This document shows positions 26,236 to 35,095 of a DNA stretch of 41,736 nt, piece by piece. A model generated the notes under the pieces. It did no database searches, was not told where the DNA came from, and worked only from the letters and a program-made list of their open reading frames with translations. Source of the stretch: a virus; IMG/VR virus record IMGVR_UViG_3300045988_047176; one strand, written 5' to 3'. A program made the position numbers and the translations under genes. Numbering within the stretch: position 1 is the first letter of the stretch; the number at the start of each line of letters is the position of its first letter.

Positions 26236-26447
26236 ACGCGGGTATCTGGAAGATCGCCACGGCGAAGCTGTGCGGACAGTGCATACGGGACATGGAGGAC
26301 GAGTACATCTTCGCCCCCATGTGGCGGCGGACACTGGGCGGCACGTGCGAACGGTGCGGAGAAAACCGCATTGTCCATGAGGTGCAGTACACGATGAACA
26401 AACGAGGGCTGGAGAAAAGAGGGAAACTGAATGGGCCTGATGAGTAA
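26232..26447 (+). CDS. Small zinc-finger protein
   Basis: 71 aa with CGQC ... CERCG. It is coupled to the upstream gene. Confidence 0.45.
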   Translation: MNAGIWKIATAKLCGQCIRDMEDEYIFAPMWRRTLGGTCERCGENRIVHEVQYTMNKRGLEKRGKLNGPDE

Positions 26448-26892
26448 CGATCTGGCGCGGCTGTCCCCGGCGGCACAGAAGCAAATCATGGAGAAGATGC
26501 AGGGCAAAAAGACTCCAAAGAAGAATAAGTACCGGAACGAAAAAACGGTGCGTATCATGCCGAACGGCGAGGAGTATGAGTTTCACAGCAATAAGGAGGC
26601 GAAGCGCTACGATGCGCTGATGCTGCTGCAAGCAAACGGGGAGATACGGGGACTCAAATTACAGGTGCGATACTGCTTGCAAGAGGCGTACACGACGTTT
26701 GATGGCGACCGGGTGAAAAGTATCGACTACATCGCGGACTTCGTGTACGAGCGCAGAACGGCTCCTGACAGCTACGGCCAGCGGTACTGGTTGCCGGTGG
26801 TGGAGGACGTGAAGGGGATGCGTACCCGCGAGTATGCCATGAAAGCAAAGCTGTTCCGCAGTAGATACGGGTTTGCTATCCGGGAGGTGTGA
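26431..26892 (+). CDS. DUF1064-family protein (restriction-endonuclease fold, putative junction resolvase)
   Basis: 153 aa. ...FHSNKEAKRYDALMLLQANGEIRGLKLQVRY.L......IDYIADFVYE....VVEDVKGMRTREYAMKAKLFRSRYG matches the DUF1064 pattern. Confidence 0.65.
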   Translation: MGLMSNDLARLSPAAQKQIMEKMQGKKTPKKNKYRNEKTVRIMPNGEEYEFHSNKEAKRYDALMLLQANGEIRGLKLQVRYCLQEAYTTFDGDRVKSIDYIADFVYERRTAPDSYGQRYWLPVVEDVKGMRTREYAMKAKLFRSRYGFAIREV

Positions 26893-26895
26893 AGC

Positions 26896-27504
26896 GTGAA
26901 ACAACAAATCGCATTGAACGTAGACTGCATGGAGTATATGCGGACGCTTCCGGATAAGGCATTTGATCTTGCCATTGTAGACCCGCCGTATGGAATTAGC
27001 ATTCATGATAGTGGCCGATTGAAAAAATACAATGCCACTGAAACAAGATGGGACGATGCGACTCCGGGTGATGTGTATTTTAGCGAATTAAAAAGATGCA
27101 GCAAAAACCAAATAATATGGGGGGGAAATTATTACGATCTTCCGCCTTGTAGGGGATTTGTTATTTGGGACAAAAAGCAGCCGGAAGATATTTCTTTTGC
27201 ATCTTGCGAATTTGCATGGACTTCTTTCGATACATCTGCGAGAACTTTTTATTACTCGCCGTTGCAAGAAAAGGGGCAAAGAATACATCCAACGCAAAAG
27301 CCCGTGGCATTGTACGAGTGGCTGCTGATTAAGTACGCCAAAGAAGGCTGGCGCATACTGGATACACACTTGGGCAGTGGAAGCAGCAGGATAGCGGCCT
27401 ACAACCTCGGCTTTGAGTTTGTGGGGTGCGAGATCGAACCGACATATTTCCAACTGCAAGAACAGAGGTTTGCGGAACATACGGCGCAGGAAAGGTTGTG
27501 GTGA
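26896..27504 (+). CDS. DNA N6-adenine/N4-cytosine methyltransferase (beta-class, N6_N4_Mtase)
   Basis: GTG start after GGGAGGTG. It has DPPY (IVDPPYGI), HPTQKP and the late SAM-binding motif LDTHLGSGSS, which is the motif order IV then I. Confidence 0.85.
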   Translation: MKQQIALNVDCMEYMRTLPDKAFDLAIVDPPYGISIHDSGRLKKYNATETRWDDATPGDVYFSELKRCSKNQIIWGGNYYDLPPCRGFVIWDKKQPEDISFASCEFAWTSFDTSARTFYYSPLQEKGQRIHPTQKPVALYEWLLIKYAKEGWRILDTHLGSGSSRIAAYNLGFEFVGCEIEPTYFQLQEQRFAEHTAQERLW

Positions 27505-27507
27505 CGC

Positions 27508-27783
27508 ATGGGTAAACAGCATTTGAGCAGGGACGACCGCATCTTTATGCGTGGCAAGCTGCAAGGCACACGGGAGAACATGGACATGGTGGCGATGGTG
27601 CTGATGGACAAATGCGGCTGGCACGTCCAAGAGGAGACAGCGGACAGCCGGGACACGCAGAGCATTGCGTATCTGTATGAGTGCCTGGAGAAACTGGCGG
27701 AGGAGATAAACGAAGGCCGCATCAAGCGGAAGCACATCAAGGACGTGCTGAAGGACGAGTGCGGCGTGGTGTTTGGAGATTGA
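27508..27783 (+). CDS. Hypothetical protein (91 aa)
   Basis: The ORF is tightly packed between the two methyltransferase genes. It has no recognisable motif. Confidence 0.45.
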   Translation: MGKQHLSRDDRIFMRGKLQGTRENMDMVAMVLMDKCGWHVQEETADSRDTQSIAYLYECLEKLAEEINEGRIKRKHIKDVLKDECGVVFGD

Positions 27784-27787
27784 TGGA

Positions 27788-29236
27788 ATGAAAATACTGA
27801 TCGGCGGAAGCCCCTGCACACATTGGAGTATCGCACAGACCAAGAACCGCGAAACCGAGGCCAGCGGCGTCGGATGGGAGTTGTTTCTGAATTACCGCAT
27901 CGCGCGGGACAAGTACCAGCCGGACTATTTCCTGTATGAGAACAACAAGTCCATGTCGCCCGCCATCCGGGCGCAGATCACGGCGGAGCTGGGCGTGGAA
28001 CCCGTGCTTATCAACTCCGCGCTGGTATCGGCGCAGAACCGCCAGCGGCTCTACTGGGTGGGAAAGCGTAACCAGGACGGAACATACAGTCGAGTAGACG
28101 TAGAACAGCCGGAGGACAGGGGCGTTTATCTGCGGGACATTTTGGAAACGGGCCTGCCGCTGCGCGAAAAGGCGTATGCACTTTTGAAAGGACACAGCGC
28201 GACGGCGGAGGACGCCATTGCGCGCAGGGCGCGAAACGCGGCTGCGGAACCAATTACCATTAAGCCACTGACCGAAAAAGAGATGGATTACATGGTGCGC
28301 GATAGCAAGGGGAAATACACAGACAGATGGAGCTATTTGCAAAAACCGGGGCAATCAGATAAGGCACTTTGCCTCACGGCAAATGTCAGCAGGGGCGTTC
28401 CATACAATGTGTGCGCTGAACCCGTCCGCATCGGGACTATCGAAAACGACAGCAAGAACCAAGACCACGACAGCCAGCAATACCGTGTCTATTCGCCGGA
28501 CGGAAAGAGCGTGACGCTTTGCGGCAACGGCGGCGGAGTGGGTGCAAAAACTGGATTGTACGCCGTCCCGTGCTGTATGAGATACGAGAGATCGCCGGAG
28601 GCTAAACGCCTCCGCAAACAGTACGAGGCACACGAAATCAGCCACGGCTACCACGAGTTCTCCGAGCTGCACCCGCGCACAGACGGGAAAAACAATACAT
28701 TATCGACGGTTCTTAAAGATAATCCAATTTGCGAGCCTGTCATAGAAAAGGACGAAAGCGGTCATTATGCCATTTCTATGGCAGACGGCAAGAAATACCC
28801 GGTTTACGAAGTCCGAAACGGTCTTATTACCGTCAAAGACAAACAATATCCTATTAAGCTGGCAGACGATTTCTATATCATTCGCAAGCTGACCGTGCGC
28901 GAATGTATGCGTCTCCAAACGGTGCCGGAAACATACGCTTTCCCCGTGAGTGACAGTCAAGCCTATAAAATGCTGGGCAACGGCTGGACGGTGGAGGTGA
29001 TTGCCCACATTATGAGCCATTTTACCGGGCTGACGGAGGAGCCGGTGGAAGTCCTGCCCATGTACGATGGAATGAGTTGCGGGCATATTGCGCTGGACAA
29101 GCTGGGCGCGAAGATCACCGCCTACTATGCGACCGAGATCGACAAATACGCCGTACAGACCACACAGCACAATTTCCCGGACACCGTGCAGTTGGGCGAC
29201 GCTTTCCAAGTACGAAAAGAGGATTGGGTGCTATGA
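27788..29236 (+). CDS. DNA (cytosine-5) methyltransferase, circularly permuted (motifs IV-X precede motifs I-III)
   Basis: The motifs run in this order: IV GGSPCTHWS, V/VI ...YFLYENN, VIII SAQNRQRLYW, IX TVRECMRLQTVPETY, X KMLGNGWTVEV. The C-terminal 60 aa then carry motif I (LPMYDGMSCGHIAL), motif II (YYATEID) and motif III (LGDAF). The start could be TTG at 27773. Confidence 0.8.
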   Translation: MKILIGGSPCTHWSIAQTKNRETEASGVGWELFLNYRIARDKYQPDYFLYENNKSMSPAIRAQITAELGVEPVLINSALVSAQNRQRLYWVGKRNQDGTYSRVDVEQPEDRGVYLRDILETGLPLREKAYALLKGHSATAEDAIARRARNAAAEPITIKPLTEKEMDYMVRDSKGKYTDRWSYLQKPGQSDKALCLTANVSRGVPYNVCAEPVRIGTIENDSKNQDHDSQQYRVYSPDGKSVTLCGNGGGVGAKTGLYAVPCCMRYERSPEAKRLRKQYEAHEISHGYHEFSELHPRTDGKNNTLSTVLKDNPICEPVIEKDESGHYAISMADGKKYPVYEVRNGLITVKDKQYPIKLADDFYIIRKLTVRECMRLQTVPETYAFPVSDSQAYKMLGNGWTVEVIAHIMSHFTGLTEEPVEVLPMYDGMSCGHIALDKLGAKITAYYATEIDKYAVQTTQHNFPDTVQLGDAFQVRKEDWVL

Positions 29237-29454
29237 CAAGAGATGAGATCGTGACCGCGCTGCGGTGCTGCACAGCAATATATGAGATGTGCAACGATTG
29301 TCCGTACCACCACAAGTATGGGTGTGAGGCACTGATGAAAGCCAACGACAGCCTGAAGGACGCCATTGCACGGCGGGATAAGCAGATAGAGGACATGAAG
29401 CAGGGCATGGCACAGCTGGCAAAGGCTGTGGTGGTGAAGGAGGAGCAGAAATAA
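29233..29454 (+). CDS. Small Cys-rich coiled-coil protein
   Basis: The ATG overlaps the methyltransferase stop (ATGA). 73 aa with CC..........CNDCPYHHKYGC. Confidence 0.45.
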   Translation: MTRDEIVTALRCCTAIYEMCNDCPYHHKYGCEALMKANDSLKDAIARRDKQIEDMKQGMAQLAKAVVVKEEQK

Positions 29455-29471: not shown

Positions 29472-29936
29472 ATGACGCTCAAAGAGGCGAACGCCTTTGT
29501 GGAGCAGCACCACCGGCATCATAAGCCAGTGGTGGGACACAAGTTCTCCATCGGCTGCACGGACGGAAAGGAAATCGTGGGCGTTGCCATTGTGGACAGA
29601 CCGGTGAGCCGACATCTGGACGACGGATGGACGCTGGAGGTCAACCGGCTATGCACAGACGGCACCCACAACGCCTGCTCTATGCTATACGCTGCCGCTT
29701 GGAGGGCGGCACGGGCGATGGGCTACAAACGACTTGTGACCTACATACTGGACAGCGAAAGTGGCACAAGCCTGAAAGCCAGCGGGTGGAAATGCGTGGG
29801 GCAGGCTGGCGGCTTGCGTTGGACGGGTAAGCGCAGACCGGAGGTTGACCTATACCCGGCACAAATGAAAATCCGGTGGGAGAAGGAGGAACACGATGGA
29901 TCGGTTGACTACGTACAGCAAGGAAACCACGCATGA
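29472..29936 (+). CDS. GNAT-fold protein of the XF1762/Mom-like type (possible DNA-modification enzyme)
   Basis: 154 aa. EANAFVEQHHRHHKPVVGHKFSIGC..GKEIVGVAIVDRPVSRHLDDGWTLEVNRLCTDGT.NACSMLYAAAWRAARAMGYKRLVTYILDSESGTSLKASGW has the same layout as I remember for phage Mu Mom-type acyltransferase-fold proteins. Confidence 0.5.
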   Translation: MTLKEANAFVEQHHRHHKPVVGHKFSIGCTDGKEIVGVAIVDRPVSRHLDDGWTLEVNRLCTDGTHNACSMLYAAAWRAARAMGYKRLVTYILDSESGTSLKASGWKCVGQAGGLRWTGKRRPEVDLYPAQMKIRWEKEEHDGSVDYVQQGNHA

Positions 29937-30234
29937 AAACGGCGTATGTTGCACACATTTTCTCGGCCCCGAATGCCTCGAAGTTGGCGGAAACTGCGCC
30001 ATGAATTGCAAGTGGGAAGAAGCAGCGTGGAGCCGCCTCGCCGCCTATGAGGACACAGGGCTGACGCCGGGAGACATCAAGGAATTGCTTGACGTGGCTG
30101 TGTCGAAAACAAACAAGGTTTTGCGGCTTAAAGAAGAATTGCACACCATAAAGAACGAGCTATGCCAATACTGCGGGAAGTACAAATACGCACACGAGGG
30201 CGCCTGTTACGGGTGCAGATGGAGGGAAATGTGA
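29896..30234 (+). CDS. Cys-rich hypothetical protein with an RLAAYEDTGLTP motif
   Basis: 112 aa. It overlaps the upstream gene by 41 nt and shares a motif with ORF 30434..30949. Confidence 0.45.
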   Translation: MDRLTTYSKETTHENGVCCTHFLGPECLEVGGNCAMNCKWEEAAWSRLAAYEDTGLTPGDIKELLDVAVSKTNKVLRLKEELHTIKNELCQYCGKYKYAHEGACYGCRWREM

Positions 30235-30425
30235 TGGACTGTTTTAATCATCTCTGTCCATTTCGGCAGAATACAACAAGTAACTGTAACCATTGCGAGT
30301 GCTTGGCGTGTCAGAACAGGTGTAAAGGGCCTGTTACATACACTGTAAGCAATCATACGCTGACCGCAGACGAAATTGCAAGGATGACCAATAATCCCGA
30401 TTATGGCGTTGGGGCTGGATGTTAG
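30234..30425 (+). CDS. Small Cys-rich protein (63 aa)
   Basis: ATG lies 7 nt after GGAGGG and overlaps the upstream stop. It contains CPF...CNHCECLACQNRC. Confidence 0.45.
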   Translation: MDCFNHLCPFRQNTTSNCNHCECLACQNRCKGPVTYTVSNHTLTADEIARMTNNPDYGVGAGC

Positions 30426-30433
30426 GAGGTGGA

Positions 30434-30949
30434 ATGATGGAAAATTTGTTGCAAAACTTCGCCAGCGGGCTGTGGATCGTGTTGGGCGTGTACTGTTTCT
30501 TCGGAGGCATGGGATGCCGCACTGAGGACTGTGGATTTGAGGTCGAAATCTGCGAACGCCTTGCCGCTTACGAGGACACGGGGCTGACACCGGAGGAAGT
30601 GTCTGAGTTGATTAAAGACTGGAGCGACCTTTGCATGACCATCAGAGAGTGCGGCGGCATCGACCGCCTGCGGGAGCTGGCGGAGGCCGACAAGGGCGAG
30701 CGCGTGATGGTGCTGCCGTGCAAGGTGGGCGACAGGCTTTACGAAGTAACGGGTCGAAAAACGATCAGTGTGTATAAAGTTAAAGCCATCCGCGTGGAAT
30801 TGTTCGGCTTGTTTATCGAGTGGGACATTGTAGAAGGGTTTGTTTGGCAATCGCTGTCAGGTATAAACGCCGGAGAAATCGGTAAAACCGTATTCCTCAC
30901 CCGCGAGGAGGCGGAGAAAGCGCTGGAGGCGATGAAGAATGGCAATTAG
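30434..30949 (+). CDS. Hypothetical protein with an RLAAYEDTGLTP motif
   Basis: RBS AGGAGGTGG. 171 aa with a hydrophobic N-terminus, the shared motif, and a C-terminal beta-rich domain. Confidence 0.5.
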   Translation: MMENLLQNFASGLWIVLGVYCFFGGMGCRTEDCGFEVEICERLAAYEDTGLTPEEVSELIKDWSDLCMTIRECGGIDRLRELAEADKGERVMVLPCKVGDRLYEVTGRKTISVYKVKAIRVELFGLFIEWDIVEGFVWQSLSGINAGEIGKTVFLTREEAEKALEAMKNGN

Positions 30950-32044: not shown

Positions 32045-32437
32045 GTGGCTGCAAGGTTGACAGACCGGCAGAAAAAGAAAATACTGGCGGACTATGTGCA
32101 GACCAGCAACTATTGCGCCACAGCCAAACTTAATGGGGTTTCCGCAAACACTGTCAAAAAAATAGTGCAGACAAATGCGGATATTGCGGAAAAACTCATT
32201 AGAAAAAAAGAGGAGAACACCGCCGACGTTTTGACGTACATGGAGAGCCAGCGTGACATGGTGTGCCAGATTATAGGTAAGGGGCTGGCAGTGCTGAATG
32301 ATCCGGCGAAGCTGGCAGAGGCAACGCCCAGCCAAATCACGACTGCTATTGGGACATTGATAGACAAGTGGACGCTGCTACAAGAAAAGACCGCTAATGA
32401 TGACAGCGAGAGGGTTCGGGTGATAATTGATGTCTGA
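32045..32437 (+). CDS. terS: Terminase small subunit
   Basis: GTG lies 8 nt after GAGG; the start is uncertain (32036-32045). About 130 aa with an HTH-like segment (NYCATAKLNGVSANTVKKIV). It overlaps the terL start. Confidence 0.65.
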   Translation: MAARLTDRQKKKILADYVQTSNYCATAKLNGVSANTVKKIVQTNADIAEKLIRKKEENTADVLTYMESQRDMVCQIIGKGLAVLNDPAKLAEATPSQITTAIGTLIDKWTLLQEKTANDDSERVRVIIDV

Positions 32438-33668
32438 CATCCGCCTGTCTGAAAAAATCGGCTCTGCGTTCTACGACGTGGCGCATGACGTGTTTCAGCA
32501 TGGTCATACGCACTACGATTTCAGCGGTGGGCGCGGCTCACTGAAGTCCTCCACGGTGTCTGTACTCGTCCCCCTGCTGCTGATAAACAATCCGGGCACG
32601 CACGCTCTGGTGCTGCGTAAAGTGGCAAACACCATCCGTGACAGCGTGTACGCGCAGTATATCTGGGCAATCGGTGAACTGGGCATGGCGGCGTATTGGG
32701 AAGCAAAGGTTTCCCCGATGGAGCTGATCTACAAGCCTACCGGGCAGAAGATTATGTTTCGCGGCGCCGATGACCCTATGAAAATCAAGTCTATCAAGGT
32801 GCCGTTCGGTTATATTGCTGTGACGCACTTTGAAGAGAAAGACCAGTTTGCCGGTCGTGCCGAGATACGAAACATCTTGCAGTCCACCATGCGCGGCGGC
32901 TCGGTGTTCTGGAACTTTGAAAGCTATAACCCGCCGATCAGCCGCGACAACTGGGCGAACAAAGATAGCCTAGAGGAACGCGCTGACCGGCTGTGCCATA
33001 AATCAACATATTTGCAAGCGCCCCCTGAGTGGCTGGGCCAGCAGTTCCTTGACGAGGCGGAACATCTCAAAGAGACGGACGAACGTGCATATCAGCATGA
33101 GTACTTGGGGATTCCGGTCGGGACAGGCGGCAATGTGTTTGACAACCTGGAACTGCGGGAAATCACGGACGAAGAGATTTCGTATTTTGACCGCATTTAC
33201 CAGGGCGTAGACTGGGGCTGGTTCCCTGATCCGTTTGCGTTTATCCGGCTGCATTATGACCGAGCGCGAGAAACGATTTTTCTCATTGATGAGATTTACC
33301 AAAACAAATTGACAAACGAAGCAAGCGGTGGACTCATCAAAAAGCGCAACTATATCGATGCGTACATCACCTGCGATAGCGCAGAACCGAAAAGCACTGC
33401 GGACTATCGTGCATTGGGCCTTTCGGCAAAAGAAGCGGTCAAAGGCCCTGGCTCTGTTGACTACGGTATGAAGTGGCTGCAACGCCGGAAGATCGTCATC
33501 GACCGTCGCCGGACGCCGAATGCATACAACGAATTTGTAAATTACGAATACGAGCGGAATAAAGACGGCGATATCATCAGCGGTTATCCTGATGAAAATA
33601 ATCATTTGATTGATGCCACAAGATACGCTTTAGAGCGGATTTCTCGCCGGATGGGAGTTATCGCATGA
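32430..33668 (+). CDS. terL: Terminase large subunit (PBSX-family type)
   Basis: About 412 aa. It has a Walker A-like segment (FSGGRGSLKSSTVS), a Walker B/coupling region (...HFEEKDQF) and nuclease-domain motifs (GVDWGW..DPFA; ITCDSAEPKS; NHLIDATRYAL). Confidence 0.9.
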   Translation: MSDIRLSEKIGSAFYDVAHDVFQHGHTHYDFSGGRGSLKSSTVSVLVPLLLINNPGTHALVLRKVANTIRDSVYAQYIWAIGELGMAAYWEAKVSPMELIYKPTGQKIMFRGADDPMKIKSIKVPFGYIAVTHFEEKDQFAGRAEIRNILQSTMRGGSVFWNFESYNPPISRDNWANKDSLEERADRLCHKSTYLQAPPEWLGQQFLDEAEHLKETDERAYQHEYLGIPVGTGGNVFDNLELREITDEEISYFDRIYQGVDWGWFPDPFAFIRLHYDRARETIFLIDEIYQNKLTNEASGGLIKKRNYIDAYITCDSAEPKSTADYRALGLSAKEAVKGPGSVDYGMKWLQRRKIVIDRRRTPNAYNEFVNYEYERNKDGDIISGYPDENNHLIDATRYALERISRRMGVIA

Positions 33669-35095
33669 GTAATGCAGTTATCTTAAAACTTAACGAGTTG
33701 GGCTATACCACTATCCCGGACAGCTTCTACAGCAAAGTGTACGAGTGGAAAAGCTGGTATCAGGGCGATGTAAAAGGCTTCCACAACTACACTGTGCAGA
33801 ACGGTGAGCGACATGTGAAGTGTAGGCGCTACTCCCTTGGCATGGGAAAAAAGCTGTCCGAGGATTGGGCTAATCTCTTGATGAACGAGAAAGTCCAAAT
33901 CACACTTGAGGGTCAGAAAGAGCAGGACTTTATTGACCTGGTGCTGACGGAAAACAACTTCACCGTCAAGGCAAACGAGATGCAGGAGATGAAGTCCGCG
34001 CTGGGCACTGTGGCCTATGTCCCACGTGTCACTGGGCAAGAGATCAGCGAAAGCGGGGATATTGTACCAGGCAACGCATCCGGTATCGTGCTGGACTATG
34101 TGACCATCGAGAACATTTACCCGCTGTCCTGGCAAAATGGATATATCAGCGAGTGCGCGTTTTCTTCCGAAGTCACGCGTGGCGGTAAAGATTATCTGTA
34201 CTTGCAGATACACCGGCGTGAGGACAACGGCAACTATGTCATTGAAAACCGCATCTATTGGTATGACAATGAGCAGCTGGCGGACGAGCAGCTTGTTAAT
34301 GTCAAGGGATTTGAAAATATCCCGCCTGTGGTGCACACAGGTAGCGACAAGCGGCAGTTTGTCATTGACCGGCCCAACATCGCCAACAACGTCAACTATC
34401 TGCTGCCGACCGGTATCGCAATCTACGCCAATGCTATTGACGTATTGCAGGGCGTGGATATTGCCTACGACAGCTACGTCAACGAGTTCAAACTGGGCAA
34501 GAAGCGCATCATGGTTAAGCCGTCTGCGGCGCAGTATCTTGACGGCACCCCTGCTTTTGACCCTGACGATGTGGTGTTTTACGTCATGCCGGAGGATACA
34601 GAAGACGGCGCAGTTGTAACGCCAATTGACATGACGCTGCGGACGGCGGAGCACAACACCGGCATTCAGGATCAGCTCAATATCCTTTCCAGTAAGTGCG
34701 GCTTCGGCGAGACCTATTACCGTTTTGACGGCGGCAGCGTTGCGACGGCGACACAGGTAATCAGCGAAAACTCTACCATGTTCCGCACCATTAAAAAGAT
34801 GGAGATCGTTCTGGAGCAGGCGCTTGTGGAGCTGTGCCGCATCCTGCTTAGGCTGGGCAACACCGCCATGAACGCTGGGTTGAATGAGGATGTGGAGATC
34901 TCCATTGACTTTGATGACAGCATCATTGAGGACAAGCAAACCGACTTTTCCCGTGATATGCAGCTTCTCAGTGCGGGCATTATGAACGATTGGGAGTTCC
35001 GCATGAAGTGGATGAACGAGGACGAGGCGACCGCAAAGGCGGCGCTGCCGAAGATGCAGGACATGACGGATGAGCCAAACACGGAAACAGAGTAA
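33665..35095 (+). CDS. Portal protein (SPP1 Gp6-like)
   Basis: 476 aa. The ATG overlaps the terL stop. The call rests on size and position and on the acidic C-terminus. Confidence 0.85.
   Translation: MSNAVILKLNELGYTTIPDSFYSKVYEWKSWYQGDVKGFHNYTVQNGERHVKCRRYSLGMGKKLSEDWANLLMNEKVQITLEGQKEQDFIDLVLTENNFTVKANEMQEMKSALGTVAYVPRVTGQEISESGDIVPGNASGIVLDYVTIENIYPLSWQNGYISECAFSSEVTRGGKDYLYLQIHRREDNGNYVIENRIYWYDNEQLADEQLVNVKGFENIPPVVHTGSDKRQFVIDRPNIANNVNYLLPTGIAIYANAIDVLQGVDIAYDSYVNEFKLGKKRIMVKPSAAQYLDGTPAFDPDDVVFYVMPEDTEDGAVVTPIDMTLRTAEHNTGIQDQLNILSSKCGFGETYYRFDGGSVATATQVISENSTMFRTIKKMEIVLEQALVELCRILLRLGNTAMNAGLNEDVEISIDFDDSIIEDKQTDFSRDMQLLSAGIMNDWEFRMKWMNEDEATAKAALPKMQDMTDEPNTETE

Follow-up and report, generated by a model that had tools for sequence, protein, structure and literature searches.

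A circularly permuted C5-cytosine methyltransferase predicted in phages, with its chain cut between motifs III and IV

The window analysed here, the whole of a 41,736-nucleotide stretch of viral DNA (IMG/VR record IMGVR_UViG_3300045988_047176), is a phage genome, with a large terminase gene at 32427-33668 and a portal gene at 33665-35095. We focused on a complete gut-phage coding sequence on its + strand (27788..29236; 482 amino acids plus stop, from the list of open reading frames (ORFs) and the sequence) that is predicted to encode a circularly permuted C5-cytosine DNA methyltransferase. The ATG at 27788 opens a single uninterrupted frame that closes with the stop codon at 29234-29236. Reading the surrounding sequence, we found a Shine-Dalgarno-like GGAGA on the + strand (27775..27779), 8 nt 5' of the ATG, and the stop codon of the upstream gene at 27781-27783; homologues of the methyltransferase begin at the equivalent methionine. 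The downstream gene starts at 29233 and forms an ATGA overlap with the methyltransferase stop, and on this reading the methyltransferase is tightly coupled to both neighbouring genes.

All parts of the protein are given here with their + strand coordinates. The catalytic subdomain (residues 1-95; 27788..28072) holds strand β4 and motifs IV, VI and VIII, and corresponds to positions 63-196 of the PF00145 profile and to DNMT3 residues 75-169. The chain starts five residues ahead of GGSPC in motif IV (GGSPCTHWS), with the codon of the catalytic Cys10 at 27815-27817; motif VI reads YENN and contains Glu51 (E51-N52-N53, an ENN variant), and motif VIII reads QNRQR (residues 83-87). A variable or target-recognition region follows (residues 96-360; 28073..28867), with a phrog_17284 match and with length variation in the family, and built as a mosaic of modules such as QQYRVYSPDGKSVTLCGNGGGVGAKTGLY. 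Motifs IX (RKLTVRECMRLQTVP, at about 366-383) and X (LGNGWTVEVIAHI, with GNGW at 397-400 within LGNGWTVEV) occupy residues 361-412 (28868..29023), matching profile positions 275-320 and M.HhaI residues 272-316. The alignments then place a short linker, TGLTEE (residues 413-418; 29024..29041), the covalent connection between the ends that are free C and N termini in normal-order enzymes. The S-adenosylmethionine (AdoMet)-binding subdomain comes last (residues 419-482; 29042..29233; profile positions 5-56 and DNMT3C residues 4-50), with motif I as VLPMYDGMSCG (DGMSCG at 427-432), motif II as YYATEID (Glu450) and motif III as QLGDAF (LGD at 469-471, Asp471), and the chain ends 11 residues past motif III. 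The linear order is IV-V-VI-VIII, variable region, IX-X and I-II-III, and the canonical order from I to X is absent.

We scanned the protein piecewise against PF00145, its sole significant Pfam match. It scored 107.4 bits (E value of 1.3e-30; cut-off, 22) in three stretches, in which residues 1-137 aligned to profile positions 63-196 (motifs IV-VIII), residues 361-414 to positions 275-320 (IX-X) and residues 416-482 to positions 5-56 (I-III). When the sequence was de-permuted by placing 416-482 before 1-415, the score was 122.2 bits in one contiguous stretch (profile 6-232). The TIGR00675 score falls below threshold (93 bits; cut-off, 100.65) because the match is split. Phmmer searches against the sequences of PDB chains ranked DNMT3A/B/C first (E values of about 1e-11 to 1e-12), with the alignment blocks in rotated order: query residues 418-462 aligned to DNMT3C 4-50, 3-92 to 75-169 and 371-410 to 234-275. 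M.HhaI matched in motifs IX-X (residues 272-316), and DRM2 195-285 aligned collinearly to query residues 387-472, across the join of motif X to motif I. The E values that support the rotated order are far beyond chance. The original prediction, made from the letters of the window, had called the ORF a circular permutant and named a PF00145 alignment as the check; every motif that it quoted (IV, VI, VIII, IX, X, I, II and III) was found where it had placed it, the profile match proved to be split and reordered, and the rotated phmmer alignments and the better contiguous match after de-permutation bear out the permutation. Together they confirm the observation of a predicted permuted C5 methyltransferase. 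The canonical order is typical of the C5 family and is not a mechanistic requirement.

To locate the break, we used phage proteins of normal order as a comparison set (Vibrio phage ICP1, Bacteroides phage BT24 and other Vibrio phages). These cultured-phage proteins had appeared as candidate permuted homologues in tblastn matches that covered query residues 1-480, and were rejected as such when their translations showed the normal order I-X; the permuted look of the matches came from the tool, which had strung re-ordered pieces together. The de-permuted junction ...QLGDAFQVRKEDWVL|MKILIGGSPC matches column for column ...QLGDVTKWQEWGIDWASIDLVTGGFPC of ICP1 and ...LGDVTKLDVSKLEKIDLLIGGSPC of BT24, and compared with these relatives the de-permuted protein has no residues gained, lost or overlapping. 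The junction is seamless, and therefore the new termini map to the short connection between β3 and β4. As had been predicted, the break is confirmed to lie in the linker between motifs III and IV, two or three residues ahead of the predicted strand β4, and rejoining the ends recreates an ordinary junction.

We modelled the protein with AlphaFold2 using the family alignment (predicted template modelling score, 0.73). The predicted local distance difference test (pLDDT) score was about 85-97 for residues 1-120 and 370-482, with 87-97 for the catalytic residues 1-95, 84-97 for motifs IX-X and 90-97 for the AdoMet subdomain. The N-terminal part was predicted to form strand 2-7, helix 28-43, strand 47-53, helix 58-68 and strands 72-76 and 86-94; the part with motifs IX-X, helices 370-376 and 389-409; and the C-terminal part, strand 419-425, helix 431-438, strand 442-449, helix 453-462 and helix 472-476. 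In this model, the order of secondary-structure elements is that of the canonical fold read from β4 onward. Foldseek returned M.HhaI as the best PDB match (E value of 4.5e-11; template modelling score of 0.54-0.57, normalised to the target), along with DNMT3A/B and ntDRM/DRM2, and a structure search of BFVD gave only generic names ('cytosine specific methyltransferase'). The confident core and the PDB matches are those of a class I methyltransferase fold with a small target-recognition domain. The expectation that the two halves would form a normal Rossmann fold was upheld as to the confident core and the canonical elements in rotated order; the completed sheet itself we infer.

The original prediction had suggested a search for relatives with the same permutation. 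We found a large phage clade. Among the nearest 120 clusters at 90% identity, all 120 have MK.LIGGSPC at their start, or are cut-short forms of such proteins, with motifs I-III close to the C terminus; most end in ...QLGDAFQVR..DW.., and some have a short extra tail. These clusters are drawn from ENA, Logan, JGI and NCBI contigs, many of them independent and many about 42 kb long, as is the window. The nearest family members range from 394 to 653 amino acids, and the variation sits in the variable region. An exhaustive search of representatives at 50% identity yielded 8974 relatives at E <= 1e-3, of which the best 150 were sorted by motif order in local phmmer runs with three segments of the query. 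Full-length permuted proteins accounted for 67 of these 150, with 9 permuted fragments, 41 proteins of normal order and 2 tandem two-domain proteins; at least 67 of the best 150 clusters thus belong to the permuted clade, and the ORF is not an isolated case. The permuted architecture was also present in 18 of 20 loci from metagenome-assembled genomes (MAGs), and the MAGs that carry relatives are nearly all of Clostridia (Oscillospiraceae, Ruminococcus, Oscillibacter, Lachnoclostridium and Herbinix). An alignment of 55 family sequences (down to about 41% identity) shows no variation at E51, N52, Q83, R85, R87, N398, W400, D427, G428, E450 and G470, and conservation of at least 90% at C10 and D471. 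Across the sequences compared, the permuted architecture is conserved and evidently under selection.

A homologue in GenBank, from phage nd4, has 43% identity to the window protein and the same permuted order, plus a C-terminal tail. Its gene (OR777945, 3998-5674; WRQ08028.1) is annotated 'hypothetical protein', and the tail extends about 100 amino acids past motif III and is acidic and coiled-coil-like. Relatives of 700-1100 amino acids have motif IV about 350 amino acids past motifs I-III, which we considered as an insertion in the III-IV linker and rejected: Pfam identifies inteins at the catalytic cysteine. These inteins (Hint plus LAGLIDADG) sit exactly at the motif IV cysteine (GGSP|CFVAG...) in permuted and normal-order members alike, as in P0254 (residues 10 to about 382), P0131 (about 74-425), P0149, P0237 and P0151.

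The variable region is itself modular. A module with the pattern RIG...Q.YRVYS.DGKS.TL..NGGG.GAKTGLY occurs in 1-5 copies among relatives, with two in phage nd4, and the window protein has one copy of each variable-region module that we tested. A conserved hairpin module (PVYEV..G.I.IKGK.YPIKL) always stands ahead of motif IX. Modules of the TL type are typical of DNA-recognising target-recognition domains (TRDs). Multispecific phage C5 methyltransferases (SPR/phi3T type) have several tandem TRDs, each with its own specificity. In the window protein's family, the mosaic organization of the region hints that recognition may be multispecific.

To reconstruct the origin of the permutation, we built a neighbour-joining tree from de-permuted cores (97 sequences, 197 columns). 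All permuted proteins fell into one clade (bootstrap, 69/100), beside normal-order proteins that have GGSPCT[YH]WS and ENN. Several normal-order relatives, including P0142, P0156, P0171 and P0173, carry GGSPCTYWS and ENN, and ICP1 already has the tryptophan; PCT and ENN are therefore older than the permutation and did not result from it. The original prediction had tied the replacement of PCQ and F by PCT and W to the permuted active site, which the relatives contradict: PCT appears to be a trait of the subfamily. The same prediction had proposed tandem duplication followed by truncation at both ends, and this idea gains support, although not proof, from tandem relatives of the same subfamily. 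In P0128 (962 amino acids) the motifs run I-IV-X-I-IV-X; the second domain is very similar to the window protein, and the tail of the first domain (...IAHFFTGLS) resembles the X-to-I linker of the window protein (...IAHIMSHFTGLT). P0263 (618 amino acids) is a second tandem two-domain C5 methyltransferase, and one related locus (L010) has two permuted methyltransferase genes head to tail (27-875 and 945-2510). Tandem proteins and tandem genes are raw material for permutation in either direction.

A close comparison is with normal-order phage C5 enzymes of the same subfamily (ICP1 ADX88273, BT24 XXJ49882, Vibrio phage 1.147.O AUR90578 and the metagenomic P0142, P0156, P0171 and P0173). They share the phage-borne orphan setting and the motifs LSLFDGMSCG, YYA.EID, QLGD, GGSPC, INSALVSAQNRQR and GNGWTV, with identities of up to about 50-66% over matched stretches, but run from I to X, whereas the window protein begins at IV and has I-III at its C terminus. 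DNMT3 enzymes carry PWWP and ADD regulatory domains and form oligomers with DNMT3L. DNMT3A/B/C resemble the window protein in their short III-IV linker, a motif I of the FDG..TG type and their structural match; they differ in their normal order, in having PCN instead of PCT and in lacking a long variable region. Plant DRM enzymes are eukaryotic and carry UBA domains. In DRM2 and ntDRM, as in the window protein, the permutation falls inside the catalytic domain and motif I follows motif X directly; the window protein has no UBA-type Pfam domain, has IV and V at the N terminus ahead of VI and is broken between III and IV, whereas DRM enzymes are broken between V and VI and run VI-X, I-V (PMC3227630).

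Natural prokaryotic C5 enzymes with an X-to-I join are known in M.BssHII, M.Alw26I, M2.Eco31I, M.Esp3I and M2.BsaI (type H, zeta or class F; PMC5944983; 10.1101/2023.12.13.571470). In the BssHII type, the chain is cut in the variable region, which puts IX-X ahead of I-VIII and leaves each of the two structural domains whole; in the window protein, IX-X come after the TRD and the cut falls inside the large catalytic domain. The known permuted enzymes, as the original prediction had stated, thus break elsewhere (BssHII with IX-X first, DRM with VI-X first), and neither order is seen here. The beta-class N6-adenine and N4-cytosine enzymes (M.PvuII, M.RsrI and CcrM) have the same linear order of IV, TRD, X and I-III (PMC7544214), but have (D/S)PP(Y/F) instead of PC, exocyclic-nitrogen instead of C5 chemistry and another Pfam family (PF01555). 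Motif IV of the window protein reads SPC, and its resemblance to the beta class is one of topological convergence and not of membership. Artificial permutants (types B and C) made in the laboratory from M.HaeIII, M.MpeI and M.SssI have N termini between II and III or between III and IV and are reported to keep methyltransferase activity (PMC5944983). The same paper, citing Peisajovich 2006, describes evolved M.HaeIII permutants that begin between III and IV as active.

The gene lies in a modification cluster. A DUF1064 resolvase-like protein is encoded at 26431-26892, followed on the + strand by a beta-class N6/N4 DNA methyltransferase (26896..27504; PF01555 and phrog_67 matches), two genes upstream of the permuted enzyme, with DPPY near its N terminus and an AdoMet motif near its C terminus. 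The window therefore holds two near-adjacent methyltransferases of equal linear topology and different chemistry. An ORF of 91 amino acids lies between these two genes, and one of 73 amino acids separates the permuted gene from a Mom-like DNA-modification gene on the + strand, two genes downstream (29472..29936; phrog_1384, E value of 1.9e-41; Pfam Mom, 23.8 bits, below the 27.1 cut-off). In P0124, a permuted C5 methyltransferase carries a close homologue of the Mom-like protein (residues about 510-658) at its C terminus, a fusion that suggests that the two proteins may be functionally linked. Small cysteine-rich ORFs downstream of the methyltransferase (29233-29454, 29896-30234 and 30162-30425) had no family match, and two small ORFs (29896-30234 and 30419-30949) have a RLAAYEDTGLTP(G/E) motif in common.

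We consider the protein to be a functional, stand-alone (orphan) phage C5 methyltransferase of a DNMT3-like phage subfamily, circularly permuted through duplication and with a role in anti-restriction, and put the probability of this reading at roughly 85%. We predict the ordinary C5 mechanism and, from it, the formation of 5-methylcytosine. Cys10 of the PC loop would attack C6 of the flipped-out cytosine, Glu51 of ENN would protonate N3 and Arg85 and Arg87 would hold the base. The methyl donor AdoMet would be held by the C-terminal module (the motif I loop, Glu450 and Asp471), against which the motif X helix would pack. Only the start and the end of the chain would have changed: the normal C terminus (the motif X helix) would be joined by about 6-10 residues to strand β1, with the new termini on the side of the sheet away from the active site. 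The permutation most likely arose once, by tandem duplication or fusion of two methyltransferase domains and subsequent loss of the outer parts, in an ancestor of a clade of phages of gut Clostridia. Given the cluster with an N-methyltransferase and a Mom-like protein, the most likely role would be to methylate the phage genome against host restriction, and the mosaic recognition region may confer several specificities. Several points weigh against this account. The recognition region is poorly modelled, with pLDDT below 50 over about 122-316, and the pairing of β4 with β1 is deduced. We sought a conserved gene neighbourhood in 20 related loci and found none; neighbours vary, and the link to the modification cluster is therefore circumstantial. 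The tandem forms fit permutation by duplication but do not prove the direction of events, and the single origin is drawn from a neighbour-joining tree of 197 columns with moderate support (69/100).

Could the ORF be an assembly error, a frameshift or a chimera, that is, two adjacent ordinary genes or a mis-joined contig? Adjacent methyltransferase genes do exist in relatives, as in the locus with two in tandem, but the start and the motif order are identical in the nearest 120 of 120 clusters, in phage nd4 and in 18 of 20 MAG loci, and one unbroken frame speaks against two genes or a frameshift. The upstream ORF (27508-27783), which we considered as a hidden I-III module or frameshift partner, was rejected: it has no Pfam or PHROG match, no FxGxG-like motif and nothing else resembling motifs I-III. 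The artefact is effectively refuted, with next to no probability left to it. It is also quite improbable that the protein is left over from a tandem pair of methyltransferases, decayed or without catalytic activity, and survives only to bind DNA or in regulation. Inactive paralogues such as DRM3 and DNMT3L do occur elsewhere, and inteins, which typically occupy functionally essential sites, lie at the catalytic cysteine of some members and argue against decay. So does the (near-)invariance of C10, E51, R85, R87, D427, G428, E450, D471 and N398 over a clade of at least 67 clusters at 50% identity. A worry voiced over type B permutants (PMC5944983) is that a chain permuted within the catalytic domain may bind AdoMet less tightly, but engineered permutants cut at this very site are active according to the same paper.

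Slightly less improbable, if still unlikely, is a C5-methyltransferase fold that acts on another substrate or towards another product: RNA or tRNA (in the manner of Dnmt2), single-stranded DNA at replication or the first step of a hypermodification. The motifs PCT.W and ENN are unusual beside PCQ.F and ENV, but both PCT and ENN are found in normal-order relatives too, and the glutamine of PCQ is not universal, as DNMT3 has PCN. The long variable region with its TL-type modules is of the kind expected for DNA recognition. A Mom-like modification gene lies nearby and is fused in P0124, and there are known cases of phage C5 methyltransferases feeding into TET-type hypermodification (10.1101/2023.12.21.572611); against this, no TET/5mYOX, glycosyltransferase or Dnmt2-type features were present in the 14 ORFs scanned in the modification-cluster and packaging regions.

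We compared the topology with published classes. In REBASE, Albert et al. 2018 counted 27 C5 enzymes with a permuted order, every one of BssHII type H with its cut in the variable region, and noted that other permutation types, although active if engineered, seem absent from nature (PMC5944983). Woodcock et al. 2020 describe 'one alternative permutation' of the 5-methylcytosine motif order (PMC7544214), and the preprint by Samokhina and Alexeevski (version of December 2025) recognises C5 enzymes in two classes only, C and F (10.1101/2023.12.13.571470). The suggestion that the topology is new agrees with these three sources, in which the natural prokaryotic permutants are solely of the BssHII type. 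We found no description of a natural C5 methyltransferase with the order IV-X-I-III in the full-text literature that we searched, the coverage of which is incomplete and excludes REBASE itself, so that prior notice is possible. On balance, and by a narrow margin over even odds, we favour the view that these proteins form a large, unrecognised natural C5 class of beta-like topology (IV-VIII, TRD, IX-X, I-III), the first prokaryotic one cut inside the catalytic domain. This class would have a single origin by duplication and truncation with tandem intermediates still extant, and would, in phages of gut Clostridia, have branched into a range of mosaic anti-restriction enzymes that are possibly multispecific.

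C5 methyltransferases are the textbook case of a fixed motif order, and natural prokaryotic exceptions have been held to be of one type only. Annotation pipelines that assume this order can miss or under-score such enzymes, as seen in the TIGR00675 score below threshold and in the nd4 homologue named 'hypothetical protein', and classifiers based on motif order have no class for this topology. The authors of the REBASE survey concluded that evolution favours cuts in the variable region that leave both domains intact (PMC5944983); a large natural clade cut between III and IV would, if true, contradict that generalisation. It would also be a natural counterpart to the M.HaeIII permutants obtained by directed evolution, and would mean that C5 enzymes have reached the order of the beta class. 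A single subfamily contains sisters of normal order, two-domain tandem proteins, permuted genes in tandem and permuted enzymes, and therefore offers a rare natural series for testing permutation by duplication.

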